Part shown: positions 6,489-50,076 of the stretch, in pieces
How the letters are laid out: each line of letters opens with the position of its first letter
Position numbering within the stretch: the stretch's first letter is position 1
DNA from: an uncultured Thermoprotei archaeon
GTDB taxonomy: Archaea; Thermoproteota; Thermoprotei; QMSL01; B3-G16
Reading direction: 5' to 3'
DNA length: 64,000 nucleotides
Assembly (NCBI GenBank): GCA_964517845.1
Contig: CAZFCQ010000006.1
Coordinates: 13,817-77,816, forward strand
Position numbers and translations under genes: made by a program
The notes under the pieces: generated by a model
The model's database searches: none
Told to the model about the DNA's origin: nothing
What the model saw: only the letters and a program-made list of their open reading frames with translations

Positions 6489-8615
6489 GTGTTATATAAA
6501 GAGGAGGAAATAGTAGCAATAGTAAGAAGCGACATAAAACATAATATAGCTTACGGTAATGAATACCTAGTATTAACGAATAAACGTCTATTAGTAATAT
6601 CTGAGGACACATTAGTCAAAGATATCCCTCTAAAGAAGATTAATATGGCTTCTATGAAAGGAAACCTTGGTATATGCGTCTTAGTAGTCGATACTTGTGA
6701 TGGCCCTAAGAACGTTTTATACTTCTCTAGAACACGAAAAGGCGACTTTAAGAAAGTAATAACCCTAATAAACGATCTAACACTTAACCAGATCCCTGTT
6801 TCTGAAATTAAAAAATATCTGGGTGAAATACTCCAGAAAAGGCAGTTAAGTAGAAATAAGAGGGCTATTCTCTTAAGATTACTAGGTTTTTTAAGGCCCT
6901 TTTTGCATTTAGTAATTCTCACTTTTACTATTGCAATAATATCAAGAGTCCTAAGCCTTCTTCCTCCTTATCTAATGGCCATTCTCATAGACAAAGTACT
7001 CATACCTCGAACTAACTTTGATTTACTCGTCAAGATTATCTTAGCTTTACTAGGCATTCATATAACTACTATGTTACTGAACATCCTCTCTGGTTACTTA
7101 GATCTAAAGTTACGCTTAGGACTTACTACAAGCTTAAGAGCTAAACTTTATGAGAAGCTTCAGATACTTTCTCTAAGCTTTTATGATAAATACTCTACTG
7201 GAAGAATTATCTCAAGAGTATCAAGTGATGTGAACCATATCAATAACTTCCTAGTAATGGGAGTAGGTGCTATGCTCTTAGACGTCATAGTCATAATTTC
7301 TATAGGTGTAATCCTAATTACATTGAATCCTTGGCTTACATTAATAGCGTTAACACCTCTACCTATCTCGTTATTAGGTACAGCTATTTACAAAAAGTAT
7401 GCTTCAAAGTATTATCATAGACTATGGAAACGCTGGTCAGATATAGTCTCATTACTTTCAGAGACTGTCTCAGCGTTTATTCTAGTTAAGTCCTTTGGTA
7501 AGGAACGTCATATGGTATACAAATTTAGAGAGAGATTAGGGAAGTTTATTGATGCAAATATGGATGTGTTTAAATATAATCAGAAGATTTGGCCAGCTAT
7601 AGGCCTCTCCTTTACCATCAGTAGTCTCCTTATATGGTGGCTTGGTGGCCTTCAAGTACTCCAAGGTACATTAACCTTGGGTGCACTAACAGCTTTTACT
7701 AGTTACATGTGGAGTTTCTATAGGCCAATAAACGATTTCTTCGCACAAGTTCGTAGTATACCTGGAGCTGTAGCTTCTGGTGAAAGGATATTTGAAGTTC
7801 TTGATCTAGAGCCTGATGTAAAGGAGAATCCAAAAGCTAAAGAGATCGATATTAAAGGTGCTATAGAATTTAAGGATGTCTGGTTTACGTATGATGGTAT
7901 ATATTATGCCCTCAGAGGAGTGAATTTAAAGATCAAGCCTGGTGAGCACATAGGTGTTGTAGGTCCTAGTGGCTCAGGTAAGACTACCTTAGTGAAGCTA
8001 ATTCTGAGACTATACGATCCCCAGAGAGGTAAAGTGCTTATTGATGGAATTGATATAAAGGACGTTAAACTTGAGTCACTTAAGAAACAGGTAGCTATAG
8101 TACTACAAAATCCTATACTCTTTGATACAACTATTGCTGAGAATATAGCCTTAGGTAAAGAGGATGCAACATTAGAAGAAATCATAGCAGCAGCAAAGGC
8201 AGCTAACGCTCATAGCTTTATAATGAAGCTTCCTGAAGCTTATGATACTAAAGTTGGTTCACGAGGAAAGCGGCTCTCAGGAGGAGAGAGGCAGAGAATA
8301 GCTATAGCCTCAGCTATTCTTAAGGATCCCAAAATACTAATACTTGATGAACCTACATCTTCTCTTGATGCCATAGCGGAGAAAGAGGTCTCTGAAGCTA
8401 TAGATAATCTAACAAGAGGCAAAACTACTATAATAATCGCTCATAGATTGTCTACATTAAGAAGTGTAAATAAAATAATAGTCCTAGATCGGGGCGCTAT
8501 AGTCGAAGAAGGAACCCATGAGGAGTTATTAAAGAGGCAGGGACTCTATAAGAAGCTCTTTGATGCTCAGTTTGAAGGATTCGTAAGGCCTACTCCTATG
8601 CCTATAAGGAGGTAG
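6489..8615 (+). CDS. ABC exporter, fused permease-ATPase (MsbA/type I exporter-like) with an N-terminal bPH/GRAM-like domain
   Basis: 708 aa; ~120 N-terminal aa (YLVLTNKRLLVISED) resemble a bacterial PH domain. They are followed by a 6-TM block, Walker A GPSGSGKTT, signature LSGGERQR and Walker B ILILDEPTSSLD. Confidence 0.85.
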   Translation: MLYKEEEIVAIVRSDIKHNIAYGNEYLVLTNKRLLVISEDTLVKDIPLKKINMASMKGNLGICVLVVDTCDGPKNVLYFSRTRKGDFKKVITLINDLTLNQIPVSEIKKYLGEILQKRQLSRNKRAILLRLLGFLRPFLHLVILTFTIAIISRVLSLLPPYLMAILIDKVLIPRTNFDLLVKIILALLGIHITTMLLNILSGYLDLKLRLGLTTSLRAKLYEKLQILSLSFYDKYSTGRIISRVSSDVNHINNFLVMGVGAMLLDVIVIISIGVILITLNPWLTLIALTPLPISLLGTAIYKKYASKYYHRLWKRWSDIVSLLSETVSAFILVKSFGKERHMVYKFRERLGKFIDANMDVFKYNQKIWPAIGLSFTISSLLIWWLGGLQVLQGTLTLGALTAFTSYMWSFYRPINDFFAQVRSIPGAVASGERIFEVLDLEPDVKENPKAKEIDIKGAIEFKDVWFTYDGIYYALRGVNLKIKPGEHIGVVGPSGSGKTTLVKLILRLYDPQRGKVLIDGIDIKDVKLESLKKQVAIVLQNPILFDTTIAENIALGKEDATLEEIIAAAKAANAHSFIMKLPEAYDTKVGSRGKRLSGGERQRIAIASAILKDPKILILDEPTSSLDAIAEKEVSEAIDNLTRGKTTIIIAHRLSTLRSVNKIIVLDRGAIVEEGTHEELLKRQGLYKKLFDAQFEGFVRPTPMPIRR

Positions 8616-9135: not shown

Positions 9136-10419
9136 TTAACCACTTTTTGTTAGCTCATCTAGTATTTCTTTAGCTCTATCTAGTCTTATCTTTCCTTCCT
9201 TTATCATTCTTTCAACTATTATGTCTATTAGCTTACCTTTGGCTCCTGCAGCTATCGCTATATTTCTAGCATGAAGCTTCATGTGGCCTTTTTGGATACC
9301 TTCAGTAGCAAGTGCCTTTAATGCTGCTAAGTTATTTGCTAACCCTACTGAGACCATTACCTCCGCTAATTCATTAGCAGTTTTAACACCTAATATCTTC
9401 AAGGCTACCTTCGCTAATGGATTTGATCTCGTAGCTCCACCTACTATGCCCACAGCAATAGGCATCTCTAGGCATCCTTTAAGATTGCCTTCCTTAGTTT
9501 TTTCCCATGTACTTAATGGTAAGTATTTACCTGAGAGAGCAGCATAGGCGTGTGCTCCTGCTTCTAGAGCTCGTGTATCATTCCCAGTAGCTAGAGCCAC
9601 AGCTATCACTCCATTCATTATCCCTTTATTATGAGTCGCTGCTCTATAAGGATCTGCGGCTGCAAATGCATATGCATAAAGTATAGCATCGACAACTTCC
9701 TCTCCTCCTAGAACTTCCTTAGGCACTATGCACTCAGCTCGTGCAAGCCTTTTAACAGCTAAATTGGACACGATTCTGAGGTATACTCTACCCCCTGTTA
9801 TTTTCTCAATATACGGTGCTACAGCCTCCGCCATTGTATTAACTATATTAGCACCCATAGCGTCTCTTACATCTACAAGTAAATGTACTATTAACATAGA
9901 TCCTTTAATGCTATTAATAGTCCTAACTTCTAAATCCTTAGCTCCTCCACCCAGTTTTACTAATAAAGGATCTTTTTCATTTGCTATCTCTAATATCTTA
10001 TCTTTCTCACCTATTATGGTTTCTTTAGCTTCCTCAAGATCTTTAACGCCTACAAGCTGTATTTGCCCTATCATAATAGGTGGAGTTGTACTAGCCTTAA
10101 ATCCTCCCCCTTGTCTAACCATCTTTGCTGCGTTGCTCGCGGCAGCTACTACAGATGGTTCCTCTATTACCATAGGTACTAAGTAGTCTTTTTCATTTAT
10201 CAAAAAGTTCGTTGCAATAGCAAAGGGTAAATGGAAGACGCCTATAACGTTTTCTATCATTCTGTCTGCTAGGTCTATAGGTAAGCTACCCGTGTTTAGT
10301 AATAGCCCAACTTCTTCATCCGTCAACTCAGCAAGCTCTTTTAGTATTTTAAGCCGCTCAATTATTGGGAGCTTATAGAAGCCTGGAAGTCGCGAGGTCT
10401 TATTCATACTTCTAATCAC
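9136..10419 (-). CDS. hmgA: 3-hydroxy-3-methylglutaryl-CoA reductase (class I, archaeal)
   Basis: 427 aa; conserved EEPSVVAAASN, DAMGANIVN, GTVGG-like (IVGGATR) and HMKLHARN regions of HMG-CoA reductases. Confidence 0.9.
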   Translation of the reverse strand: MIRSMNKTSRLPGFYKLPIIERLKILKELAELTDEEVGLLLNTGSLPIDLADRMIENVIGVFHLPFAIATNFLINEKDYLVPMVIEEPSVVAAASNAAKMVRQGGGFKASTTPPIMIGQIQLVGVKDLEEAKETIIGEKDKILEIANEKDPLLVKLGGGAKDLEVRTINSIKGSMLIVHLLVDVRDAMGANIVNTMAEAVAPYIEKITGGRVYLRIVSNLAVKRLARAECIVPKEVLGGEEVVDAILYAYAFAAADPYRAATHNKGIMNGVIAVALATGNDTRALEAGAHAYAALSGKYLPLSTWEKTKEGNLKGCLEMPIAVGIVGGATRSNPLAKVALKILGVKTANELAEVMVSVGLANNLAALKALATEGIQKGHMKLHARNIAIAAGAKGKLIDIIVERMIKEGKIRLDRAKEILDELTKSG

Positions 10420-10528
10420 CTTTTTATTCCTATCCTTCTTTTTGCTTTAAAGTATTAAGAATGAGCTTAATAATGGTGGAAATAGGTTTGATTATAGAAA
10501 AGAAAAAAGGGGAATTGTCTTTAGAATT

Positions 10529-11392
10529 TCAAATCTTTGAAAGAAGTTTAAGTATATTCTTCATGCAAATCTCAGAAGCCTCTTCTCCCATAGCTGAGAA
10601 TGCTGCACCACCAGGTTTAACTATTTGTTCCTCTGTAAGCCTAATCTTAGGTCTCCAGTGGGTCTCTAGTGAAAGATATCCTATGTATCCATCCTCCTTC
10701 AAGGCTTTAAATTGCCCTAGATAATCAACATCTCCCTCTCCTACTGGTGTTGGTTCATGTTTCCCAGGTCCAAGTCTTTTACCATCCTTAATGTGAACAT
10801 GCACTATCCTTCCACGTACATATTTATATCCATCAGGATAAGGTATCTCTCCTTCTGGATCAAAAATATCATTTCCTGGATCCCATAATGCTTTTACATA
10901 TTTGTTCTCTTTTAAAGCATCAAGGAATTGAGCTAGTCTTAGTCCATTATTAACGTGAGTGCTCGGTTCATTCTCTATAGCCAGTATAACACCTTCACTC
11001 TTGATTATGTCTAGTGGTTCCCCGAATTTCTCTAGTATCTTGTCTAAATATTGCTCTAGAGGTCCTTTCCTCCAGAAGGTGAATCCGCGGATTAAATTAG
11101 TGTCAAGGCTTTTCGCTAACTCTATTACTTTCTTTAATATATCAATATGCTTCTTGTATTCCTCCTCGCTATCGAGATTCGCTTTAAAAAACGGTGATGC
11201 TATGCAACATACTTCTAAGTTGTACTTAGATAATACCTCCTTTATCTTAGGAATATCCTCTACTAAGTCTTGAGGACTTTTATTCCAAATAGTTCTTATC
11301 TCTATACCATCTAGGTTAAAGCGCTTAGCAAACTTAGCTACTCTCTCTAAGTCTTGAGAAACCTCATCGCTTATTACAGAAAGCTTAAACAT
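10529..11392 (-). CDS. Sugar phosphate isomerase/epimerase (xylose isomerase-like TIM barrel)
   Basis: 287 aa; GIEIR, AIENEP, HVHIKD motifs; second paralog in the window. Confidence 0.7.
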   Translation of the reverse strand: MFKLSVISDEVSQDLERVAKFAKRFNLDGIEIRTIWNKSPQDLVEDIPKIKEVLSKYNLEVCCIASPFFKANLDSEEEYKKHIDILKKVIELAKSLDTNLIRGFTFWRKGPLEQYLDKILEKFGEPLDIIKSEGVILAIENEPSTHVNNGLRLAQFLDALKENKYVKALWDPGNDIFDPEGEIPYPDGYKYVRGRIVHVHIKDGKRLGPGKHEPTPVGEGDVDYLGQFKALKEDGYIGYLSLETHWRPKIRLTEEQIVKPGGAAFSAMGEEASEICMKNILKLLSKI

Positions 11393-11414
11393 AAGCTAAC
11401 ACCTGCAGATATTA

Positions 11415-11912
11415 TTGTTCGATAAATTAATTAGATTTACTCATCTTGACTCTTTAATAGCTAGGTTAGTTTCTAATGGGATAACTATGAGAGTAGATGG
11501 ACGTGTACTCGTTAAAAAGCTTCTTAAAGACAAGAAGGCTTCATTAATTGTAGTTAAAGAGGGGAACATACTTTATGTTGGCTACAATCATGGATTACGC
11601 GACTTAGCATTTCTAATAAGAAGCTCACCTCGAATGTTAAATAGAGCTTATATAGCAGACAAAGTAGTAGGCAAAGCAGCTGCTATAATATTGACATATC
11701 ATAAGGTAAGCTATGTTTATGCTCTCGTATTGAGTAAATATGGCTTAAAGGTTCTTGCGCAAGAAGGAATCCCTTATGAATATGAAGAGCTAGTATCAAG
11801 CATTAGGAATCCTAAAGGAGATCTATGTCCCTTTGAAAGATTAGTTCTTGATATCGATGACTTAGAAGAAGCTTATAACATCCTCATTAAAGAATTAATG
11901 AAATTTAACTAA
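11415..11912 (+). CDS. Small conserved protein, possibly DUF1893/TM1506-like
   Basis: 165 aa; ADKVVGKAAA motif recalled from the TM1506 family; recognition from memory, so weak. Confidence 0.35.
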   Translation: MFDKLIRFTHLDSLIARLVSNGITMRVDGRVLVKKLLKDKKASLIVVKEGNILYVGYNHGLRDLAFLIRSSPRMLNRAYIADKVVGKAAAIILTYHKVSYVYALVLSKYGLKVLAQEGIPYEYEELVSSIRNPKGDLCPFERLVLDIDDLEEAYNILIKELMKFN

Positions 11913-11948
11913 GATTGTGTTGTTAATTAATTTCTATCTCCTTCCCTC

Positions 11949-13826
11949 CTAGTATAGTTCTACACCCAATTCATCACATTTCCTCTTAACGAGTTCATAG
12001 ATTCCTAGTTCCTCTAGCTTCTCTTTTGTAGGTATTCCTCTCTCGTTCCAACCTCTATATTCATAGTACTCTTTTAACATTACTTTAAGTTCAACTATTT
12101 GGCCCTTAGCGCCACCATCTTCTAACGGCTCCTTAAGGAATCGTTCAGGTAATGTATCGTCTTCTTTCACTATTCCAGCTAAGACGTTGAATATCCTTTT
12201 TAGGTTGAATATTCTCTCTCCGTCTCTCTGAAGATCCATCACTCTCTTTACGATGCCTGAAGCTAGTGAATAAAATCCAGCTACATGTCCTGGATATATT
12301 TGCACAAACTTACATAATCCTAGAGATTCTAAAACTTCATGCCAATCTTCCATAACAGCAACCATCCATCCTTTATCCTTAGTTTCAAATCTGTAAACTC
12401 TACGATAAATCTTAAGATCGGGTATTCTTTCACCTTGCTCTATTCTAAAGAATGTGCCTTGAAGGTGACAAGCTCCTCTATTTGAAGTTGCGTACTGGAG
12501 TCCCATGCCTTTAAAAGCACGGGGATCATGCATAGGTACTTCAAGTCCTTTAACGTGCATTGCATACTTTTCAGTTCCCTTTCCTATTATGGACGAAGCT
12601 AGCCTACAACCCTCTCCTAAAATTGCTCCGAATCCTTCTTTCTTGGCTATCATCTCAATAAGTCTTATTATTAACTCTGGATCACCCCAACGAAGTTCTA
12701 TTCCGTTAGTATCCTCCTTACTTATTAAACCTCTTTCATAAGATTCTATAGCCCATGCAATTGTTACACCAACTGATATAGTATCAATACCGTAATCATT
12801 ACATAGTCTCTCTAGATATATCAAAGACTCTGGATCATCATTGAGAAGTAAGGCACCTAATGAAGCGGCAGTTTCGTATTCTGGAGCCCTTCCTTCAACT
12901 CCTGCATATTTACCACTGCTTATTTTAACCACTTTCCAGCATCCTACAGGACATGCAAAACATGCCTTGTGTTCTTTTAGGTAATTACCTATTATCTTTC
13001 TTCCCTCTATTTTATGTATACCATCCCATGTACCTTTCGTGAAGTTTTTTATGGGAACATCGCCGTATTCATAGAATGATAACATTTCACCGTTAGTCCC
13101 ATATGATGCTAAGATTTGATTAGGAGGATACGACATTATCATAGGGTAAAGCCTTGCTATATTCCTTCTTAATAACTGCAAGTTCTTAATTTTAATAGTA
13201 TTTGTACCTCTTACTGCAATAGCTTTGAGATTTTTAGAACCCATTACTGCACCCATTCCTGTCCTTCCAGCTACCCTTTCATCACTTAAAATGGCTGCGA
13301 ATCTAACGAGATTCTCCCCCGCTGGACCGATACATGCGATTCGTACCTTTTCGTCATTAACCTCCTTTCTAATAGCTTCCTCTGTTTCTCTAGTAGTAAG
13401 TCCCCATAGTTTACCTGCATCTCTAATCTCTATATTATCGTTATTAATGAATATATAGACGGGTGTCTTAGCTTGTCCTTCTATTATTATACCATCATAT
13501 CCTGCTTTTTTAAGCTCAGGTCCCCAAAATCCTCCAAAATGTGCTTCTCCCCAGGCTAAAGTTAGGGGAGACTTTGCAGCAACAATAGACCTTGAAGCTC
13601 CTGGTATAGGCGTTCCGGTTAAGGCTCCTGTCATGAAGACTAATTTATTATTTTCATCAAAAGGATCTATGCGTGGATCTACTTCCTCGAATATTATCTT
13701 AGTAGCTAGTCCTATACCTCCTAAGAATGCTCTGATGTCTTCTTCGTTTAACTCTTCAATTGAAAACTTTTCTTTAGAAAGATTTATTCTTAACAATTTA
13801 CCAGCATAAGCAAACCATTCCTTCAT
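11949..13826 (-). CDS. aor: Tungsten-type aldehyde:ferredoxin oxidoreductase (AOR family)
   Basis: 625 aa; AOR N-terminal domain (LRINLS...LGGIGL), conserved pterin/4Fe-4S region CFACPVGC and the AOR C-terminal domain. Confidence 0.9.
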   Translation of the reverse strand: MKEWFAYAGKLLRINLSKEKFSIEELNEEDIRAFLGGIGLATKIIFEEVDPRIDPFDENNKLVFMTGALTGTPIPGASRSIVAAKSPLTLAWGEAHFGGFWGPELKKAGYDGIIIEGQAKTPVYIFINNDNIEIRDAGKLWGLTTRETEEAIRKEVNDEKVRIACIGPAGENLVRFAAILSDERVAGRTGMGAVMGSKNLKAIAVRGTNTIKIKNLQLLRRNIARLYPMIMSYPPNQILASYGTNGEMLSFYEYGDVPIKNFTKGTWDGIHKIEGRKIIGNYLKEHKACFACPVGCWKVVKISSGKYAGVEGRAPEYETAASLGALLLNDDPESLIYLERLCNDYGIDTISVGVTIAWAIESYERGLISKEDTNGIELRWGDPELIIRLIEMIAKKEGFGAILGEGCRLASSIIGKGTEKYAMHVKGLEVPMHDPRAFKGMGLQYATSNRGACHLQGTFFRIEQGERIPDLKIYRRVYRFETKDKGWMVAVMEDWHEVLESLGLCKFVQIYPGHVAGFYSLASGIVKRVMDLQRDGERIFNLKRIFNVLAGIVKEDDTLPERFLKEPLEDGGAKGQIVELKVMLKEYYEYRGWNERGIPTKEKLEELGIYELVKRKCDELGVELY

Positions 13827-20839: not shown

Positions 20840-21031
20840 CTCACAATACCTCTTCGTATCGCTTTTTGAAGTATTTATAGACTAATTGGTACTCTTCGTC
20901 TAAAAAAGGAATAGGCTTTCTAGTCTTGTTCATAAAAACTTTTATAGGTCTCTTTCTCTGTAGTGCTTTTAGATGGCTATTTTATTCTTTTCACGAAATA
21001 CTTATATCTAAAGTAGAGTAACTATCAATAT

Positions 21032-21829
21032 ATGATGAAAATTGAAACAGAGTTGGAAGTATTATTAAATGAATTCAGAAGTTTTTCAAACGAATTTCAA
21101 GAATGTATGCGTAGTATTCGTAATGTAATTGATGGTATGAAAGAGATTGATGGAATGCTTTCAAGAGGAGAAATAGACAAAACTACGTATGCTACTCTTA
21201 AAAGAGAGTATAAATTAAAGATCATTCCATACGTTGAGATGTACTTCGATCTAAAAGACAGAGTTAAAGAGTATAGGGATAAGCTCAATTTAATACTAAC
21301 AAAGGTTAGGTTAGATCTACGAGATTTAAGGCGCGAAGCTCTACTCATGGATGAAAAACGTACACGCTTTGAAATCCGTAGGAAACAAGAAAGGATACTT
21401 AATGAATTAATGAGGGAACTAGACACTCTTGAGAATGGATTAGATATGCGTACTGAATTAGATATTTTAGAAATATACTTAACGTCAATCAGAGATAAAA
21501 ATAGAAGCATCCCTCATGAGAGATTAGCCAAATATAGACAGCATTTTAATAAACTTATGAATAGGTGGTCCAATGAGAAGATTTCCCTTACTGAACGCTT
21601 AGAAGGCTTAGAAGAAAGAATTAGTGAAGTAAATGACTCGCTCCGTCTTAACGAAATACGTTTTTCATTAGGAGAGTATGATCATAGCACTTATAATGAA
21701 AAACGTATAGCGCTAGAGTCTAAGCTAAATGAGATCCAGAACGAAATCCGACGAATTCAAAGTACTATAGAGGAAATGGATTCGCGAATTCTGAGATGTT
21801 CAAGTCTCTTAGAGGAATTAGGAGCTTAG
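21032..21829 (+). CDS. Coiled-coil protein with two SHOCT-like motifs (locus A, gene 1)
   Basis: 265 aa, almost entirely heptad-rich; two copies of a G-E-[IY]-D-x3-Y-x3-[KR] motif (SRGEIDKTTYATLKREYKLKI at 21161-21223; SLGEYDHSTYNEKRIALESKL at ~21665-21727). Confidence 0.6.
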   Translation: MMKIETELEVLLNEFRSFSNEFQECMRSIRNVIDGMKEIDGMLSRGEIDKTTYATLKREYKLKIIPYVEMYFDLKDRVKEYRDKLNLILTKVRLDLRDLRREALLMDEKRTRFEIRRKQERILNELMRELDTLENGLDMRTELDILEIYLTSIRDKNRSIPHERLAKYRQHFNKLMNRWSNEKISLTERLEGLEERISEVNDSLRLNEIRFSLGEYDHSTYNEKRIALESKLNEIQNEIRRIQSTIEEMDSRILRCSSLLEELGA

Positions 21830-21840
21830 GTGCTTTAGGT

Positions 21841-24555
21841 ATGAAATGTAAATTTCACATAATAATCAATATTATTATATTATCCGTTTTAATTACTTCT
21901 CTTGCTATAGGAGAGGGTATAAAAGCCTCTCCTACTCTTAGCTCTCGTAAAGTAATAATCGTGAATCCCTCTCCCTTCAACAAATTAACCTATGCTTATG
22001 TTAACGTTTCCTTTGTGCCAGGAGAAGCTTATAACTCCAGTATTTACGTATATAACTCCTTTGGAGAAGAACTTCCATTTCAAGTAATTAACGCTTGCTT
22101 CTATCCTTCCTCACCTTATTATAAATACTGTATCCTTAAACTACTTCTACCACTTAAAGCATGGTCCCATGAGAACATTACAGTGACTTTTACAAGTGAA
22201 CCTCGCACTCCTACATTTTTTAATACTGATTTAGTAGTGTATACTGACAATGTCACAGGGAATCTCATAGTTAAGAATGACTTCTATAAAGTAGTATTCG
22301 GTAACGTATCATTGCAAGGAGTTCAGGAATTTTTGATAAAGTCTAATAAGGGATACGTAAGCGTACTCATACGTTGGCCTTTCATAGGATTTTCAGTTCT
22401 TTTAAAGAATGGTACTATCATTACTCCACTAAGCTATGCTAATTTGACATATAGGGTTGTAAGGAAAGGCCCTCTAGAGGTTGTTATAAGACTTAATGCA
22501 ACTAGTTATTTCATGAATATAACACAAACTTACACATTCTCTGCATATTCACCGGTCATTTATGTCCATTCTAAATTATTCTTAAGAGACTACTCTGAAG
22601 TCCTAACTGCATACCTACCCGTCTTCCACATACCAACGGGTATTTTCGACATTATATGGACATCTCTTAATACATCTGAAAACCTGGTTAAAGTTAGTAT
22701 GAAAAGCTTTAGGCCCGCTCCAACATGGTTCCTTCTCTTTTCTAGTAAAGGTAATTATGGTATGGCATACTATTATAACCAAACACTTATGAACTTCAAA
22801 AGCGCGCTCGCTAAGATACTTTACAACTTGACATATACGAAAAAACGTTCACTTATATTTGAAATCTATCGTAAACGTTCGCTATCAATATTAGGTAATG
22901 TTAGTTTCTTAATGAATCCCTCATATTACATAGGGAAAGGTATAAAAGAGGTAAAGGATGTTATCTGGTCTCTAGGGTACTTAGCCAATAATACTGAATA
23001 CTATGAGGATATCCTCTTTGCTAATATAACTCAAAAGATGTCCTCTATCTATTCTAATGTCTCAAAGAGGCTCGTCTTCTTTAAGGAAGAGGGTTACCTT
23101 AACTTAGCTTATCAGTTAAATGAAACGCAACTACGTAGTAATGTTATTCAGCTTGATTCCAGCTTAATAGTATATCCGTATCTTAACTTAACAAAGAATT
23201 TCACGAGGAATATATGGAAGGATGTCATTAAGGAGATGATAACTCCAGTAAGTATACTTACTCCCTTAGCTATCTCTATTAATGCTCCTAACCAAGTCTT
23301 TACTGATGAAATCTTTAACGTAACTGCAAGGATAATAGTTTTAGAGGATTTAGCGAAGCTTAATGTAAGCCTTATGCTCCCAAAAGGTGTCAGGATATTT
23401 AGTGATATTAATACATATAACTTCACTAATGTTAGACAGGGTAGCGAGGTAGACGTCTCTTGGAGTTTAGTCCCCTTTTATGAAGGAAATTATACTCTAA
23501 ATCTTCTTGCCTCATCTGAGAGGGGTGACATCGTCATTAGTAAACCAATAAGCATAATATTTTATCCTGTATTCCCTAAGGTCTCTCTTCTTTATAACCT
23601 TACTGTACTTTGCAAGGATCAAGAAGGTAGACCCATCCCACATATAATGGTTAAAGTCTATGACAATAGGACGGGGGCGTTGGTAGGTTATAATGTGACA
23701 GATATAAACGGTACAGCTACCTTTTATAACTTAAAGTTAGGAACATATAAGGTAGTAGCTTCTGACGGAATAATATCTAATAAGACTATAGTCCTTCTTT
23801 ATAGAAATACCGTATCCTTGATAGTACTTGGTAAGGCGTCCTTCGCTTTAAGCGTATTTTCCTCAGGCGGGTACCCAATGGAAGGAGTAGCCGTATACAT
23901 TTATGATGTTAATGGTACGCTAGTATTTATGGGATATACCGATAAGCATGGTTATTTTGAGAAGCGAGGGCTCCCTCTAGGTAATTATACGATATCTCTG
24001 AGATGGTTTGATGTTACTCTCGATTACTTTAGTCTTAATTTAACAAGAGATATCAACATGAGTTTAACACTTCATGTTCATAAGCTAGTAATTAATGTTA
24101 TGCTATCTGATGGACGTGTATTACCTGGAGCTAAAGTGTCTATAAGCCTAGAGATGGAACGTAGAGGTACTCCCAGAGTGATAGCTTATACTGATGAGTA
24201 TGGTAGAGTGACATTACTTTTGCCTCGTTCTCGATATATAATTGAAGTGGAGAAAGGTCAATATAGGGGTAGAGCTTCAGTATTTCTGGATAGAGATACT
24301 GTAATAGATATCGTATGTTCTACGATAAACACTCTCTGGATCCTTGTCGGCTCTGCGGGAGGTCTTTGGGCCTTTACTGCTCTCTACTGGCAACGAGTTA
24401 CTCGTGTAACATATAGGGAAGAAAGAAAATATCAGCAACTACTTAGGCGACTTGAAGAGTTTTATAGAAAAGGTTTGATAGAGGAGAAGTACTATTTAAG
24501 ATTGAAGAGTGAATATGAGGAGAAATTAAAGAAATTAAGAGGTGAAAGATCATGA
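21841..24555 (+). CDS. Large N-glycosylated surface protein with 3x transthyretin-like (CarbopepD_reg-like) repeats, C-terminal TM anchor and cytoplasmic SHOCT-like tail (locus A, gene 2)
   Basis: Signal/TM MKCKFHIIINIIILSVLITSLAIG and more than 30 N-x-S/T sequons. Three ~60-aa beta-sandwich repeats (VKVYDNRTGALVGYNVTDINGTATF...), a C-terminal TM helix, then RKGLIEEKYYLRLKSEYEEKL. ORF track start 21796 overlaps the upstream gene; ATG 21841 preferred. Confidence 0.65.
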   Translation: MKCKFHIIINIIILSVLITSLAIGEGIKASPTLSSRKVIIVNPSPFNKLTYAYVNVSFVPGEAYNSSIYVYNSFGEELPFQVINACFYPSSPYYKYCILKLLLPLKAWSHENITVTFTSEPRTPTFFNTDLVVYTDNVTGNLIVKNDFYKVVFGNVSLQGVQEFLIKSNKGYVSVLIRWPFIGFSVLLKNGTIITPLSYANLTYRVVRKGPLEVVIRLNATSYFMNITQTYTFSAYSPVIYVHSKLFLRDYSEVLTAYLPVFHIPTGIFDIIWTSLNTSENLVKVSMKSFRPAPTWFLLFSSKGNYGMAYYYNQTLMNFKSALAKILYNLTYTKKRSLIFEIYRKRSLSILGNVSFLMNPSYYIGKGIKEVKDVIWSLGYLANNTEYYEDILFANITQKMSSIYSNVSKRLVFFKEEGYLNLAYQLNETQLRSNVIQLDSSLIVYPYLNLTKNFTRNIWKDVIKEMITPVSILTPLAISINAPNQVFTDEIFNVTARIIVLEDLAKLNVSLMLPKGVRIFSDINTYNFTNVRQGSEVDVSWSLVPFYEGNYTLNLLASSERGDIVISKPISIIFYPVFPKVSLLYNLTVLCKDQEGRPIPHIMVKVYDNRTGALVGYNVTDINGTATFYNLKLGTYKVVASDGIISNKTIVLLYRNTVSLIVLGKASFALSVFSSGGYPMEGVAVYIYDVNGTLVFMGYTDKHGYFEKRGLPLGNYTISLRWFDVTLDYFSLNLTRDINMSLTLHVHKLVINVMLSDGRVLPGAKVSISLEMERRGTPRVIAYTDEYGRVTLLLPRSRYIIEVEKGQYRGRASVFLDRDTVIDIVCSTINTLWILVGSAGGLWAFTALYWQRVTRVTYREERKYQQLLRRLEEFYRKGLIEEKYYLRLKSEYEEKLKKLRGERS

Positions 24556-27500
24556 GGAGGCTTTTATATATACTTACCATTTTATATATCATCACGATCA
24601 GTATATCGCTACCTATTATATCATCTTCTAGCTCTTCATCAAGCGCTATTTATATAACTTTTACTCTTCGGGATTACTATACGGATGAACCGCTTTATAA
24701 CGTTACAGCAGAGGTGACGCTTTCTGCTTCTGGATTAGGTACACGTACATTCAAGCTAGCTACGAATATAACAGGTTTAGCTACTGTTGTATGGAAGGGC
24801 GGTTCAATATCTCCTGGTACTATACCCAGGTTAACATCATTAAGGCTTTCCATAGTTAATGTAACTAAAGAGAAAAAGGTCTATCCCTTACTTGTAATGA
24901 AAATCTGTAAGTCCTTACTAGAATTTGAAGAGTATGTAACTGCATACTTTGATACTACTATGAATATGTCAGTATATGAAGATCTAGATATCCCCTTAGA
25001 TATAATGACTGAAGGTAATATGAGTATAATTAGATGTGATGTATGGGTCCTAAGAGGGAAAGTAGTTAATATTTCCGCTTATGATCCTCTAGAAAATGAC
25101 ATCGCTGAACTTTACGTTAAGCCTGGTTTACCTATATCAGGTATTTCTGCTCAAGGATTTGAGATACCTTATGTATTACCGCTTAACTATCCAGTTCTAA
25201 TTAAGAAAAGTAGAAGAGTATCGGAGCTATATCCTGTACTACAAGTCTGGATAACTAATGAGACTGATGTAGTACCTTGGACGTATCATGTTGCTAAGGC
25301 TTTAGTTGAAAGAAAGCTAGGTGATTTGAAAGCCTCTTTACGTTGGTTTATAGCATTAGGCTATCCAATATCTGAAGAAGTAGCTTCATTAGATTTAATA
25401 AATGCCCTTTCAGACCAAGCACTCTTCCTCTTTGAAAAGAGGAATTATACTGCAGCAGTAGGCGTTATGATAAACTTAATAAGAGTTATGAATGAAAGCA
25501 CAGATAGATTAGAGTCCTTTAAGTCGTCAGCATTCCTATCCTCGTTCTTAATGTTTACTTTATTATTTGGTTTCTCAATAGTCATTACAACATTGTTCCT
25601 TCCTACTAGTAAATTTAAGAATATAGTAGGGGTAGCAATCTTCTTAGGCTTCTTAGGCACGCTTATATTATTGCAACCCTCAGCTAGAGTAGCATCTGCT
25701 GTTCTCTTAAGTTCCTTAGGTGTTAGTATAGCTGCTTTTGATTACTTTGTTTTAGCCGCTGCGACTATTGTTTTCGGGAGCATAATATATTGCATCTACC
25801 TACTCTTTGTATTAGTAACACGTCCAGCAAAGAAGCTTACTCTAAGCTTAGCTTTACAATACCTCAGGGCTAGAAAGTGGAGAAGCTTACTTCTAATAAT
25901 TACCCTAGCCCTAGTAATAGCTTCGTCTATTGCGATCATGCGTGTTTCATTAAGTACTATGCTTTATACTAGCGAGTTAAAGAGTGACTTGAATATCTAT
26001 GGGCTTGATATACGTGTTAATACCTTCTTTAAACGCGAAGGATTAACAGAGTACGAACTATATTGGATTAAGGGGCAAGTTAACTATATTGATGAGGGGA
26101 TAATCAGAGCTCCAAGTACCTTAGACTATGCTGGTGTTCTACTCATATTACCTGGTACAAGGGGAGGTGGCATTTTACTACGTGGAGTAGCGTTATCTCC
26201 TTCCTTTATGTCAAAGTATTTCCACTTAAATGTACATGTACCTATAGGACGCCTTCCATTAGACAAAGAATATGGTATTTTACTTCCATCCACGTATTTA
26301 GGAATTTTCAGACTAGGTAGCGAGGTTAAGGTCTATCTAGCTAAAGTAAGCGAGACTACGGGCAATCTTATTCCTGTAAGACCTATTACTCCTAGAACTT
26401 TAAGAGTGGTGGGATTTTTTGATCCTGTAGGATTAAAAAGCGTCAAGGGACCTGATGGAGAACCATTATTTGAGGATCCAGAAACTACGGTTATTATACC
26501 AGTTAATATAGATCTAGATAAAGACCTTGTAATAACTAGAGTATTCCTCTTAACTAATAGTGATATAGGCTTAGATTACTTAGCTTCACAGCTAGTTAAG
26601 ATATTTCCCGCTAGGATAACTGTAATGTCTGGAATAAGCTCAAGGGTCTATGAATATGTACGCATGTTAACTCTACGTGGACTTAACACTACTCTCATAC
26701 TAGTAATCATGGCTTCTCTCTTAATCTCAAGTGTAATGTTCGATACTGTTGAGGAAAGGAAGCGTGATTATTCCACTTTAGCTATATTAGGGGGTAATCC
26801 ATCTGACCTCTTCTCTATAATCTTGGTAGAGACATTGATTGTAGGGTTCATTTCTTCGTTCCTAGGATGGATTCTTGGAGTACCTGTTGCTGTATTATCT
26901 CAATATGGTATAGCCTTTCTTGGAGAGTATGTAGGTGCTTTGAAGAGTGCTACACTACTCCCTATACAGTCTGCCTTAGTCGCTCTCTTCTTAGGAGTCG
27001 TTGTGACATTCTTCTCGGGAGTTATTCCTGCTGCTAAGGCGCAAAGATTCTCCTTAATGGGACGTAAGAAGCGAAAAATAATAACGTCTGCTGACTTAAG
27101 AATAGAAGGTGATATTGCTAAGTATACCTTGCCACTTCGTGTTTCAATCTTCGAGACAAACTTACTTTACAGGTTCCTTAAGATGGAGATAGTCCCAAAG
27201 AAAGATTTCTTAGGAGAAGAAGTCTATTTAGATGGTACCTTCTCGATATCATTTGCTATGTCAGTAAAATACAAAGGTACATCAGTATCTTGTAGACTTA
27301 AGACAATCCGCAGAGGAGATATTCTACTTCTTGAACTACAGGTGCCTAAGGAGTATAAAGACTACATATACTTTAGTGATGTAGTCTATAATATTGAAAC
27401 TAAGATACTACACTATCCTGAATGGAAGTCTCAACAATTACGTTATCTCATTTTAAGGAAAGCACCATCAGAGGAGGTTATAACATTAGACAGTCTCTTA

Positions 27501-27884
27501 GAAAGGGCATTAAAGCTACTTCAGGATATAGAGGATATGAGAAATAAGTTAGACAAATTGGAAAGCATGAAACATAAGATATCCTCACAGCTCTACATGG
27601 AATATCAGGAGAGATATAAGAGAAACCTTAATAGCCTTTACCGTTCCTTAAGAGCTATTGGCATGAGGCTTGAACCCTTCTATAAGCAGTTAAGAGATGA
27701 GATTTCTAAGCTAAACTCAGAATTAGAACGTATAAATGTTGCTTATGAACTAGGTGAACTCAAACAAGAAGAGTATGAGAAGAAGGCTAATCCATTGAAA
27801 GAAGCTCTTCAGTCTTACATGGAGAAAGCAAACCAGGTAGAACGAGTATTTAGAGCATTAAAGACTCCACTTAGAACTTCTTGA
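24552..27884 (+). CDS. FtsX/MacB-like ABC-permease-domain fusion protein with extra N-terminal exodomain, 4-TM block, cytoplasmic domain and SHOCT-like coiled-coil tail (locus A, gene 3)
   Basis: 1110 aa; ATGA overlap with the upstream stop. Signal peptide and Ser8 run; MacB-type TM1 LSLALQYLRARKWRSLLLIITLALVIASSIAIM; ~230-aa periplasmic-type loop; FtsX TM2-4 (LILVIMASLLISSVMFD...); C-terminal ELGELKQEEYEKKANPLKEAL. Confidence 0.7.
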   Translation: MRRLLYILTILYIITISISLPIISSSSSSSSAIYITFTLRDYYTDEPLYNVTAEVTLSASGLGTRTFKLATNITGLATVVWKGGSISPGTIPRLTSLRLSIVNVTKEKKVYPLLVMKICKSLLEFEEYVTAYFDTTMNMSVYEDLDIPLDIMTEGNMSIIRCDVWVLRGKVVNISAYDPLENDIAELYVKPGLPISGISAQGFEIPYVLPLNYPVLIKKSRRVSELYPVLQVWITNETDVVPWTYHVAKALVERKLGDLKASLRWFIALGYPISEEVASLDLINALSDQALFLFEKRNYTAAVGVMINLIRVMNESTDRLESFKSSAFLSSFLMFTLLFGFSIVITTLFLPTSKFKNIVGVAIFLGFLGTLILLQPSARVASAVLLSSLGVSIAAFDYFVLAAATIVFGSIIYCIYLLFVLVTRPAKKLTLSLALQYLRARKWRSLLLIITLALVIASSIAIMRVSLSTMLYTSELKSDLNIYGLDIRVNTFFKREGLTEYELYWIKGQVNYIDEGIIRAPSTLDYAGVLLILPGTRGGGILLRGVALSPSFMSKYFHLNVHVPIGRLPLDKEYGILLPSTYLGIFRLGSEVKVYLAKVSETTGNLIPVRPITPRTLRVVGFFDPVGLKSVKGPDGEPLFEDPETTVIIPVNIDLDKDLVITRVFLLTNSDIGLDYLASQLVKIFPARITVMSGISSRVYEYVRMLTLRGLNTTLILVIMASLLISSVMFDTVEERKRDYSTLAILGGNPSDLFSIILVETLIVGFISSFLGWILGVPVAVLSQYGIAFLGEYVGALKSATLLPIQSALVALFLGVVVTFFSGVIPAAKAQRFSLMGRKKRKIITSADLRIEGDIAKYTLPLRVSIFETNLLYRFLKMEIVPKKDFLGEEVYLDGTFSISFAMSVKYKGTSVSCRLKTIRRGDILLLELQVPKEYKDYIYFSDVVYNIETKILHYPEWKSQQLRYLILRKAPSEEVITLDSLLERALKLLQDIEDMRNKLDKLESMKHKISSQLYMEYQERYKRNLNSLYRSLRAIGMRLEPFYKQLRDEISKLNSELERINVAYELGELKQEEYEKKANPLKEALQSYMEKANQVERVFRALKTPLRTS

Positions 27885-27919: not shown

Positions 27920-28576
27920 CTAAATTCTGCGTATAGCTATTGCTTGTACTAAATCTGCTGTATCTTCTGCACGGTCTGCTATATTCTCTAATGCATGAAG
28001 AAGATCATCTAACAAAGTTAAGTACCCTAAAGGTATTCTGTAAGCATTCTTTACCATAAGCGATCTACATTTTAAATCAATTCTATCAACTTCCTCTTCT
28101 ATTTCTTCAACTTTACGTGTTTTCTCTAATGCTTCACGTGGATTGTATAGAAGTGCCTTTATACATTCTGAAAGTGCTTTTACGCATTCGTAGTCTTTTT
28201 GTAATATCTCATTTATGCCTTCTCTAAGCTCTTCAGGTAATATGACATAAGGAATTATTTCTAGTATACGTACTGCCTCTTTTCCCCAATCGGCTACAAG
28301 GTCGAGTTTAGATAGTAGCATCATTAAGTCTCCTCTATCGTCAGAAGGCATTTCTCCTTTCTCAAGTTCCGCTACTATCCGTCTTCTGATATAATCTGCT
28401 TCTTCCTCTTTCTTAATACATATTTCGAGCATCTTTTCTCCTTTTTCAAATTGTTTCTTATTCAAAAGGTCTATACCCTTCATTAATTTTTCTATAACAT
28501 CTTGGACTATTAGCATATGATGCATTAGCATTTCAATGATTTTCTTATTTCTACGTTCACGTAACCAGTTAAGCAC
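27920..28576 (-). CDS. DUF47/PhoU-like (putative phosphate transport regulator-related) protein
   Basis: 218-aa all-helical protein with the DUF47 (TIGR00153-like) pattern; no adjacent Pit permease. Confidence 0.55.
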   Translation of the reverse strand: MLNWLRERRNKKIIEMLMHHMLIVQDVIEKLMKGIDLLNKKQFEKGEKMLEICIKKEEEADYIRRRIVAELEKGEMPSDDRGDLMMLLSKLDLVADWGKEAVRILEIIPYVILPEELREGINEILQKDYECVKALSECIKALLYNPREALEKTRKVEEIEEEVDRIDLKCRSLMVKNAYRIPLGYLTLLDDLLHALENIADRAEDTADLVQAIAIRRI

Positions 28577-46939: not shown

Positions 46940-47166
46940 TAATTATGCTCTATTTCATTAAGTGAGTATACATACATATTTAAGCGTTAAGTACAGTAAA
47001 GTCTTCATGTTTTTTCTTCAGGGTTTTTAATGAAGAACTTACTTAATTCTATAGTACCTCCAATATTACCTTGATAATACTTAGGTATCATGCATTCTTA
47101 CTGATAGTTTACTTCTTTTAAACCATGTCATAGATTTTGTCATTGAGACTATGGAGGTGGACTCAC

Positions 47167-50055: not shown

Positions 50056-50076
50056 CATTAAAGGGGTACCAACCCT

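Follow-up and report, generated by a model that had tools for sequence, protein, structure and literature searches.

Three adjacent plus-strand genes of an uncultured Thermoprotei archaeon, here designated g1, g2 and g3, are the subject of this analysis. They lie on contig CAZFCQ010000006.1 within a window of 64,000 nucleotides (nt), the whole stretch of DNA that we studied, and all coordinates are given in window numbering. The genes form one operon, and comparison of the sequences indicates that all three products share a homologous helical element, related to the coiled-coil domain of CdvA, on the cytoplasmic side of the membrane. We propose that the operon builds one envelope-spanning complex, which would be held under the membrane by CdvA-type helical hairpins joining two surface proteins; by analogy with known hairpin assemblies, we regard the chances of this proposal as evenly balanced.

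A CdvA-like helical domain

The element is most complete at the C-terminus of g3 (24552..27884, 1110 amino acids (aa)), where AlphaFold2 predicts a three-helix coiled coil (helices 979-1005, 1012-1066 and 1072-1104; 27486..27863). Two conserved motifs, KHKISSQLYMEYQERY (residues 1007-1022; 27570-27617) and VAYELGELKQEEYEKK (27738-27785), fall exactly at the two turns between the predicted helices, so that the fold is a three-helix coiled coil with two conserved turns, homologous to residues ~65-200 of CdvA. When a profile of six g3 tails was compared with 177,635 PDB sequences, the best match was the S. islandicus CdvA (9s9g_A, E 0.0098), with tail positions 148-278 aligned to CdvA 64-196, a single gap of 2 residues and both turn motifs in register. 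Direct comparison of the g3 tail with three CdvA sequences by hhalign gave a score of 39.5 (68% probability, E 4.9e-5) against 18.3 +/- 3.3 for shuffles in 7-column blocks (maximum 31.7 of 100) and 20.1 for the reversed control. This alignment starts at ILHYPEWKSQQLRY in g3 and YVLPEWKADAIR in CdvA, P-E-W-K being the sole junction motif in common. The Pfam family CdvA (PF18822) matches all six g3 tails at E<=1, with 20.1-23.2 bits on g3 residues 1006-1104 (cutoff 30), and 5 of 18 full-length g3 homologues at E<=0.01 (best 4.8e-6). The g3 orthologue MCD6369022.1 was named "CdvA-like protein" independently by NCBI's pipeline.

The exhaustive search with the g3 tail also retrieves small Zn-ribbon and FHA proteins with both motifs; the small archaeal proteins P0034, P0035, P0037, P0040, P0042 and P0043 (Zn-ribbon, FHA or stand-alone) carry the two-motif CdvA-like domain. 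CdvA-related families of Thermoproteales and haloarchaea with Zn-ribbon or FHA architectures were described by Makarova et al. 2024 (PMC10936438), and P0037, P0043 and P0040 resemble, in having a Zn ribbon or FHA domain beside both motifs, the families listed there as arCOG03733/03734 (Zn ribbon, long coiled coil and CdvA-like part) and the FHA fusion arCOG13166. We combined two CdvAs with six Zn-ribbon/FHA-type proteins into a CdvA-like profile, which was used for g1 and for the g2 tail. Since six of its eight sequences had been chosen by similarity to g3, the score of g3 against this profile (99%) is circular. Among 1042 open reading frames (ORFs) of at least 60 aa, translated in six frames from the window and from loci L001-L017, the hidden Markov model (HMM) of the CdvA-like profile matches the g1, g2 and g3 homologues alone.

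The g1 gene (21032..21829) encodes a cytoplasmic, all-helical protein of 265 aa without a hydrophobic or transmembrane (TM) segment in the hydropathy scan, in agreement with the coiled-coil nature ascribed to it in an earlier note on this DNA. It has two turn motifs. The first, "A-type" motif, GEIDKTTYATLK (residues 46-57; 21167..21202), is conserved as [GN]-E-[IL]-x3-T-[YF] in 5 lineages and corresponds in alignments to motif A of P0037, a CdvA-like protein, and in CdvA itself to residues 79-141. The second, "B-type" motif, GEYDHSTYNEKR (residues 214-225; 21671..21706), has R-F-x-L-G-E-Y invariant in 5 lineages and aligns to motif B of CdvA-like proteins. Against the CdvA/CdvA-like profile, g1 reaches a score of 41.3 over residues 107-253 (83% probability; null 18.7 +/- 3.2, reversed 17.3). 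Pfam CdvA gives 23.0 bits on residues 154-250 (E 8.8e-5, cutoff 30) and picks up g1 orthologues in three of five cases (E<=1), below threshold. The search of PDB sequences with the g1 profile returned no CdvA match, coiled-coil noise alone. These comparisons point to g1 as a soluble, elongated version of the CdvA-like helical domain. Its layout, a long coiled coil with a CdvA-like end, resembles arCOG03733/03734 by their description but lacks the Zn ribbon, and unlike those families and arCOG13166, g1 orthologues are confined to the neighbourhood of g2 and g3.

The g2 gene (probably 21841..24555, ~904 aa, its frame open from 21796) appears from its sequence to encode a type-I surface protein that ends in a short cytosolic tail, equivalent to the first hairpin of the CdvA-like domain. 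A signal/TM segment at the N-terminus is followed, beyond the ectodomain, by a C-terminal TM anchor detected by hydropathy (residues 836-860 in ORF numbering, 24301..24375; a LWIL...W segment conserved in the orthologues) and a basic 59-aa tail (24376..24552). The tail, a predicted helical hairpin corresponding to the first half of the domain, is conserved in 10 lineages and contains the turn motif GLIEEKYYLRLK (24472-24507), which in the orthologues reads L-[YW]-x2-G-x-[IV]-[ED]-x3-Y-x2-L-[KR]-x-[ED]-Y. Its alignment with the CdvA-like profile (94%, score 41.4; null 19.7 +/- 4.9, reversed 8.9) covers helix 1, motif A and the start of helix 2. One of ten orthologous g2 tails scores 21.8 bits with Pfam CdvA; the g2 profile found nothing among the PDB sequences. 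The ectodomain has three transthyretin-like domains (Pfam CarboxypepD_reg, 61.7 bits in 3 stretches) and contains all 32 N-x-S/T sequons of the protein, between residues 70 and 754, as compared with 8.2 +/- 2.6 in shuffled sequences. The earlier note had called g2 heavily N-glycosylated; the sequon excess is real and glycosylation is a reasonable prediction, the sequons being potential sites.

The three proteins are not CdvA orthologues, as is seen from three features. With the NCBIfam CdvA equivalog NF041007 (cell_div_CdvA), g1 scores 15.7 bits where the cutoff is 350. Pfam PRC has no match anywhere in the three proteins, and the domain ahead of the g3 bundle is predicted to be mixed alpha/beta. 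CdvA sequences end in PIPV[KR]V, the E3B peptide, and nothing like it is found at the C-termini of g1 and g3, which are unconserved. The cassette thus differs from CdvA as represented by PDB 9s9g and PF18822 in the lack of a PRC match, of the E3B peptide and of cdvB/cdvC neighbours. Moreover, its CdvA-like domain is fused to membrane proteins, and such a fusion is unreported in Makarova et al. 2024 or in Kaur et al. 2018 (PMC5906684).

Conservation and rarity of the cassette

Word-indexed homology searches over 5.8 billion proteins returned three clusters for g3, three for g1 and two proteins for the CdvA segment. With so few proteins returned, an exhaustive HMMER search over 1.84 billion representatives was needed to see the g3 family; with the g3 cytosolic tail it yielded 37 proteins with E<1e-3, including 24 at the stricter E<1e-10, and almost all have a length of ~1100 aa with the tail at the C-terminus. 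A genome scan added four lineages, all uncultured Thermoprotei/Thermoproteota metagenome-assembled genomes. The cassette is restricted to uncultured Thermoprotei.

The order g1 (~265 aa), g2 (460-920 aa), g3 is complete in the window and in L001/L005, L002/L003, L007, L008, L010, L017 and L019. The g2-g3 junction is kept on the truncated contigs L006, L013, L016 and L018, of which the first begins inside g2, leaving g1 beyond view, and the other three are partial. Altogether the order recurs in ~12 lineages, down to 25-29% identity, and the flanks vary by lineage: cofE/PhoU_div, znuABC/phosphoribosyltransferase, hypD, a squalene-synthase-like gene or radical SAM genes. Since gene order is constant while the flanks change, g1, g2 and g3 represent a conserved unit, and the synteny on which the earlier note had made its reading depend is found. 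Orthologues of g1 occur solely beside g2 and g3.

The family includes some deviating loci. P0029 (L011 3229-8256 / L012) is a protein of 1675 aa in which a GH15-like (glucoamylase-type) N-terminal ectodomain precedes the FtsX core and the CdvA-like tail; its locus has no g1/g2 neighbours, and a VTT-domain membrane protein is encoded upstream. At the P0020 locus (L015 6277-13091), g3 is flanked, instead of by g1 and g2, by genes for three small ectoproteins with membrane anchors that are paralogues of one another (227, 448 and 242 aa); none of them has the turn motif. At L019 3734-7234, g3 is split into a gene for a 276-aa ectodomain and one for a 731-aa core plus tail, an antisense ORF of 97 aa lying in between; the split shows the N-terminal ectodomain to be a module that can stand apart. 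Directly after the triad of L017 (GCA_003650675.1, QMRH01000021.1), at 10272-13253 on the minus strand and convergent with it, a 993-aa FtsX-domain protein is encoded whose cytosolic tail of ~150 residues aligns weakly with the alpha/beta domain of g3 and has no CdvA-like coiled coil. P0033, considered as a "tail-less" variant, was discarded as its gene is cut by the contig end.

Domain architecture of g3

The earlier note described g3 as an FtsX/MacB-like permease fusion of 1110 aa, and this description stands: Pfam FtsX (PF02687) scores 41.1 bits (cutoff 25.5), and the four-TM core fold is present. The AlphaFold2 model built on an alignment of 18 sequences has a mean pLDDT of 83 and a pTM of 0.61; an earlier model from 3 sequences (pLDDT 46) was usable for the tail alone. 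In the hydropathy scan, g3 begins with a signal/TM segment, shows clustered hydrophobic stretches at 332-422 and has further TM segments at ~445-463, 715-733, 753-781 and 807-825.

In the model, a beta-rich N-terminal ectodomain (residues 31-240; 24642..25271) is followed by an extra helical/TM bundle (residues 243-440; 25278..25871), which is also seen in the hydropathy scan and in a PADLOC match that starts at residue 269. Ten sequons are present in g3, 9 of them within residues 50-314 and 7 within 31-240, again as potential sites. The MacB/FtsX-type core (residues 442-834; 25875..27053) comprises TM1 (442-462), an extracytoplasmic domain of the MacB periplasmic type (464-709), TM2 (711-735), a short cytoplasmic coupling helix (737-745), TM3 (750-790) and TM4 (807-834). 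We conclude that the membrane domain of g3 is truly of the MacB/FtsX type (type VII ABC-like). Beyond TM4 lies a cytosolic alpha/beta domain (residues 845-969; 27084..27458) with the predicted order beta-beta-alpha-beta-beta-beta-beta-alpha-alpha and with L860, P861, G895, F897, P932, E949, W958 and R969 invariant. It is the most conserved part of the g3 family and has no sequence relative in PDB. Compared with MacB, FtsX, LolCE and YtrF, whose fold it shares, g3 has as extras the N-terminal ectodomain, the bundle of ~200 residues before TM1 and a cytosolic extension of 270 residues after TM4.

A possible assembly under the membrane

CdvA polymerises via hydrophobic contacts between its coiled-coil domains (bioRxiv 10.1101/2025.09.15.676241), and its hairpin resembles the ESCRT-I steadiness box, where three subunits each give a hairpin to one joint (PMC10936438). 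In the headpiece formed by Vps23, Vps28 and Vps37, a homologous hairpin comes from each of the three subunits, and we use this as an analogy for the mode of assembly alone. In the proposed complex, g1, in which a long coiled coil separates motif A at residue 46 from motif B at residue 214, would bridge, or co-polymerise with, the half-domain carried by g2 and the complete one of g3, clustering the two ectodomains. The FtsX-type helices and the TM2-TM3 coupling helix, packed on the alpha/beta domain, may then relay conformational or positional information between the cytoplasmic assembly and the surface, and this relay through g3 would work without a dedicated ABC ATPase.

Several observations weigh against this reading. 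All Pfam CdvA scores of the window proteins are below the gathering threshold (20-23 against 30 bits), and an HMM built from three Sulfolobales CdvA sequences is weak: it ranks the family top, yet with E of 0.01-8. The comparison of g1 with g3 barely exceeds its reversed control (30.7 versus 28.2). The g3 tail is kept without g1 and g2 in two branches, P0029/L011 and P0020/L015. With 24 clusters, the family is too rare for a core function of the class. Finally, the TM2-TM3 loop, which is the ATPase dock in known relatives, is conserved, with G747, P750, E760 and G765 invariant in 18 homologues, and the conserved coupling helix leaves room for an ATPase encoded elsewhere.

FtsX/MacB-type domains are regarded as devices that turn cytoplasmic ATP hydrolysis into movement outside the membrane. 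In the small clade considered here, a conserved cytosolic domain and a CdvA-like coiled coil stand where an ATPase gene is expected, and the two operon partners bear pieces of the same coiled coil. An FtsX-core/CdvA-like fusion, an operon with matching domain pieces and a consistent absence of the ATPase were found neither in Makarova et al. 2024 (PMC10936438) and Kaur et al. 2018 (PMC5906684) nor by further literature searches. Each domain is of a known kind, and the combination in one operon appears new. If the tails do assemble, this would be the first CdvA-type helical module used for joining membrane proteins and an instance in which a scaffold, in place of a nucleotide, drives or simply positions a coupler of the FtsX type. 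It would also suggest a way in which CdvA-like filaments could be fastened to the membrane in Thermoproteota whose division machinery is unknown, since by themselves these filaments do not bind membranes in vitro. While the rarity of the family lessens the importance of the cassette, a possible link of an FtsX-type coupler to the CdvA scaffold family, in archaea with an unresolved division apparatus, adds to it.

The orphan permease and a possible ATPase in trans

The conserved coupling-helix region also leads to a different explanation: g3 may be an ordinary type VII ABC machine that shares an ATPase of the FtsE, MacB or LolD type from another locus and uses ATP for moving or extracting something at the surface, with g2 as substrate or adaptor and g1 as regulator. 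The fold matches the ATP-driven YtrF, MacB, LolCE and FtsX, the TM2-TM3 region with its four invariant residues is retained, and the 64 kb of the window are the whole view that we have of this genome. However, g3 has neither a Walker A motif nor an ABC signature, and among the ~12 lineages with their differing flanks no ABC ATPase adjoins the cassette; ZnuC in L002 belongs to a znuABC operon. The earlier note had recorded that the locus encodes no ATPase, which is borne out, and had placed the nearest ABC ATPase ~20 kb away, which has to be corrected: a fused ABC_membrane+ABC_tran gene at 6489-8615 is closer, at 12.4 kb. The standalone ATPase at 18-749, 20.3 kb away, overlaps the start of an ABC-2 permease gene that is its own partner and lies immediately beyond the window edge, so that both ABC ATPases of the window have membrane partners of their own. 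The cassette thus differs from the MacB/FtsX/LolCE/YtrF systems, known for "mechanotransmission", in having no fused or adjacent ABC ATPase in any lineage, and the large conserved cytosolic domain that follows TM4 lies near the site where the ATPase docks in those relatives.

An orphan permease of this type is not unprecedented, going by the NCBIfam name ADOP, which stands for "duplicated orphan permease". The match of g3 to ADOP (TIGR03434) is 22.7 bits against a cutoff of 622, as g3 has a single FtsX module without duplication. Residues 269-871 of g3 match the PADLOC model PDLC01991, "CARF_m8--CARF_LolE_TM", with 109 bits (E 3.8e-32), and there is a weaker match to "CARF_Beta-galactosidase_LolE_TM"; a TM core related to that of g3 is thus listed among candidate sensors of defence systems. 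The former covers model positions 17-586 of 810, which is the TM core including the extra helical bundle, and ends 25 residues into the cytosolic domain; the last 224 model positions, presumably CARF, are unmatched, and their place is taken in g3 by the alpha/beta domain together with the CdvA-like bundle. This sister family therefore has the extended TM core and is named for a cytosolic CARF sensor, not for an ATPase, which fits an FtsX-type clade governed by C-terminal cytosolic modules. Taken together, these points make an ATPase in trans rather unlikely, and the scaffold-coupled complex is the reading that we carry forward.

The turn motif and the SHOCT domain

The earlier note had linked the three genes by the pattern G-[EL]-[IYL]-[DEK]-x3-Y-x2-[LK]-[KR] and had likened it to the SHOCT oligomerisation domain. 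The pattern occurs twice in g1, at residues 46 and 214, once in g2, at residue 893, and in no other six-frame ORF of the window of at least 100 aa. In g3, GELKQEEYEKKA misses it at the last position, so the claim of one motif in all three genes holds for g1 and g2 and, taken literally, fails for g3; the G of the motif is G, R or N in orthologues. The placing of the motif in the cytoplasmic tails of g2 and g3 was right, although g3 holds two copies, of which that at residues 1007-1022 had been overlooked. Its rarity carries little weight, the pattern having been drawn up from the very sequences that it matches, and the real test is conservation. Over orthologues of 25-68% identity the motifs are conserved, and at 25-30% identity the turn residues stay fixed position for position while the surrounding heptads drift; the g3 turns read K-x2-I-x4-Y-x-[ED]-Y and [YH]-x-[LM]-x-E-[ILM]-x4-[YF]. 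The motif is a turn or N-cap between the helices of a hairpin and has two flavours, K-x-I-x4-Y-x2-[LY]-K-x-E-Y and [VI]-[RA]-[FY]-x-L-G-E-[ILY]-x4-[YF].

Were the motif a SHOCT domain, the three proteins could assemble by SHOCT-SHOCT contacts. The g2 tail does have the appearance of such a domain, since it is a short two-helix hairpin at the C-terminus that follows the pattern L-x2-L-x3-G-x-I-x4-[YF], and SHOCT-like domains were proposed as sub-membrane protein anchors (PMC11237479). Five of ten orthologous g2 tails match SHOCT (PF09851) with 9.9-16.1 bits (cutoff 27, best E 0.0093) and two of the ten match SHOCT_2 (PF20612) with 12-15.5 bits (cutoff 24). However, these scores are far below threshold and cover about half of the model (positions 3-17 of 28), no SHOCT match at E<=10 was obtained for the three window proteins or for five 46-aa motif peptides, and g1 and g3 never gave one. 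Furthermore, the motifs of g1 and g3 are embedded in a 130-residue three-helix domain colinear with CdvA and CdvA-like proteins. We therefore reject membership in SHOCT and consider SHOCT-mediated assembly improbable; the resemblance to SHOCT appears, from these profile scores, to be a weak property confined to the g2 tail.

The C-terminal hairpins of SHOCT, SHOCT_2 and GvpG have a common layout of a short helix, a G-x-[IL]-x4-[YF] turn and a second helix, from which the proteins studied here differ by scores well under the curated cutoffs and, in g1 and g3, by the much larger domain around the motif. Weak sub-threshold GvpG matches occur in all six g3 tails, and the G-E-[IL]-x4-[YF] turn of the small archaeal CdvA-like proteins also yields weak GvpG and SHOCT matches. 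A "SHOCT-like" G-E-I-x4-Y turn thus spans unrelated-looking Pfam families (SHOCT, GvpG, CdvA-like), and the motif alone should not lead to a SHOCT annotation.

Possible relations to the Cdv machinery and to other systems

The CdvA-like tails also permit the supposition that the module is a membrane anchor or envelope coupler for a Cdv/ESCRT-type machinery, or for an unknown division or vesicle machinery of Thermoproteales, and that its tails enter filaments of CdvA or CdvA-like proteins by co-polymerisation and tie these to the membrane and the surface layer, in the manner of an archaeal analogue of bacterial FtsEX. By themselves, CdvA filaments were reported not to bind membranes (bioRxiv 10.1101/2025.09.15.676241), CdvA-like proteins are candidates for the unknown division system of Thermoproteales (PMC10936438), and FtsX is the transmembrane coupler of the bacterial divisome. 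No C-terminus, however, has a PIPV peptide of the E3B type, no Pfam PRC match was obtained, the neighbourhoods examined contain no cdvB or cdvC, and 24 clusters are too few for a core division component. We hold a role of this kind to be doubtful. Equally speculative, and with little chance of being right, is the idea of an archaeal counterpart of FtsEX in which a cytoskeletal link replaces the ATPase: g3 would be wired via its CdvA-like domain and g1 into CdvA or CdvA-like filaments, anchoring them and passing their assembly state to the two ectodomains in division or vesicle release.

The PDLC01991 match suggests yet another possibility, that g3 is a signal-controlled membrane effector akin to CARF_m8 "CARF_LolE_TM", possibly acting in defence, in which the alpha/beta domain senses a ligand and switches the membrane domain. 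The 109-bit match on residues 269-871 is in favour of this, and the conserved alpha/beta domain has no other assignment. On the other hand, the match takes in no more than the first 25 residues of the cytosolic domain and leaves the CARF part unmatched, the predicted strand order is not Rossmann-like, and the cassette is flanked by housekeeping neighbours, with no CRISPR-cas or defence genes, all of which makes such an effector highly improbable.

That the similarity is lysine/glutamate-rich coiled-coil noise among genes that are mere neighbours, which the earlier note had named as the outcome that would overturn its reading, is hardly credible: many spurious sub-threshold matches (DUF4200, DUF1664, SMC and others) do occur, but the turns are conserved at identities where the heptads drift, the scores exceed the block-shuffled and reversed controls, the CdvA-like HMM matches these three gene families alone among the 1042 ORFs and the synteny holds in ~12 lineages, so that the matter is largely settled.

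Gene starts, operon signals and neighbouring genes

The ORF list gives three frames on one strand, 21032-21829 (265 aa), 21796-24555 (919 aa) and 24552-27884 (1110 aa), in line with the translationally close arrangement reported before. The g2/g3 junction is an ATGA overlap with a Shine-Dalgarno-like GAGGTGA 8 nt upstream of the g3 start, as had been noted for the overlap itself. The overlap of g2 with g1, by contrast, is probably an artefact of calling the ORF from the first ATG of the frame. A GGTG box closely precedes the ATG at 21841, and a start at this ATG fits the orthologous N-termini; a gap of 11 nt between g1 and g2 is therefore likelier than an overlap, although a g1/g2 ATGA overlap does occur in three other lineages. 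Across lineages, the internal genes of the cassette have ATGA or near overlaps with GGTG boxes. Ahead of g1, a TATA-like box read from the sequence, CTTATATC (21001..21008, plus strand), lies ~25 nt before the ATG; by the usual archaeal promoter geometry, this position suggests that the first gene, g1, is leaderless, and it fits an operon of a leaderless g1 followed by Shine-Dalgarno-led internal genes.

The GC content is uniform across the region (35-39%), and no tRNA genes or Rfam matches were found in it, so that nothing marks it as foreign or as a mobile element. Two antisense ORFs, 21097-21510 (minus strand, 137 aa) inside g1 and 23148-23426 (minus strand, 92 aa) inside g2, were rejected as genes, since they lie inside conserved coding sequence of the opposite strand; they are most likely artefacts of biased coding-strand composition.

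A PhoU_div (DUF47) gene at 27920-28576 (minus strand) is convergent with g3, and likewise in L001/L005; a PhoU+TrkA_C gene stands upstream of the L017 triad, and the recurrence of PhoU-type neighbours is possibly coincidental. In three more distant lineages a phosphoribosyltransferase gene adjoins the cassette (L002 13343-13915, L007 13262-13915, L008 5672-6388), convergent downstream in two of them and divergent upstream in one; it is absent from the window. Neither PhoU_div nor the phosphoribosyltransferase was retained as a member of the module, as they are not conserved across all lineages. Farther along the window, at 47137-52836, a large surface-type protein of 972 aa (CarboxypepD_reg) is followed after 21 nt by a HerA/FtsK-like P-loop ATPase of 919 aa (DUF87, HerA_C), which may represent another pair of a surface protein and an ATPase.

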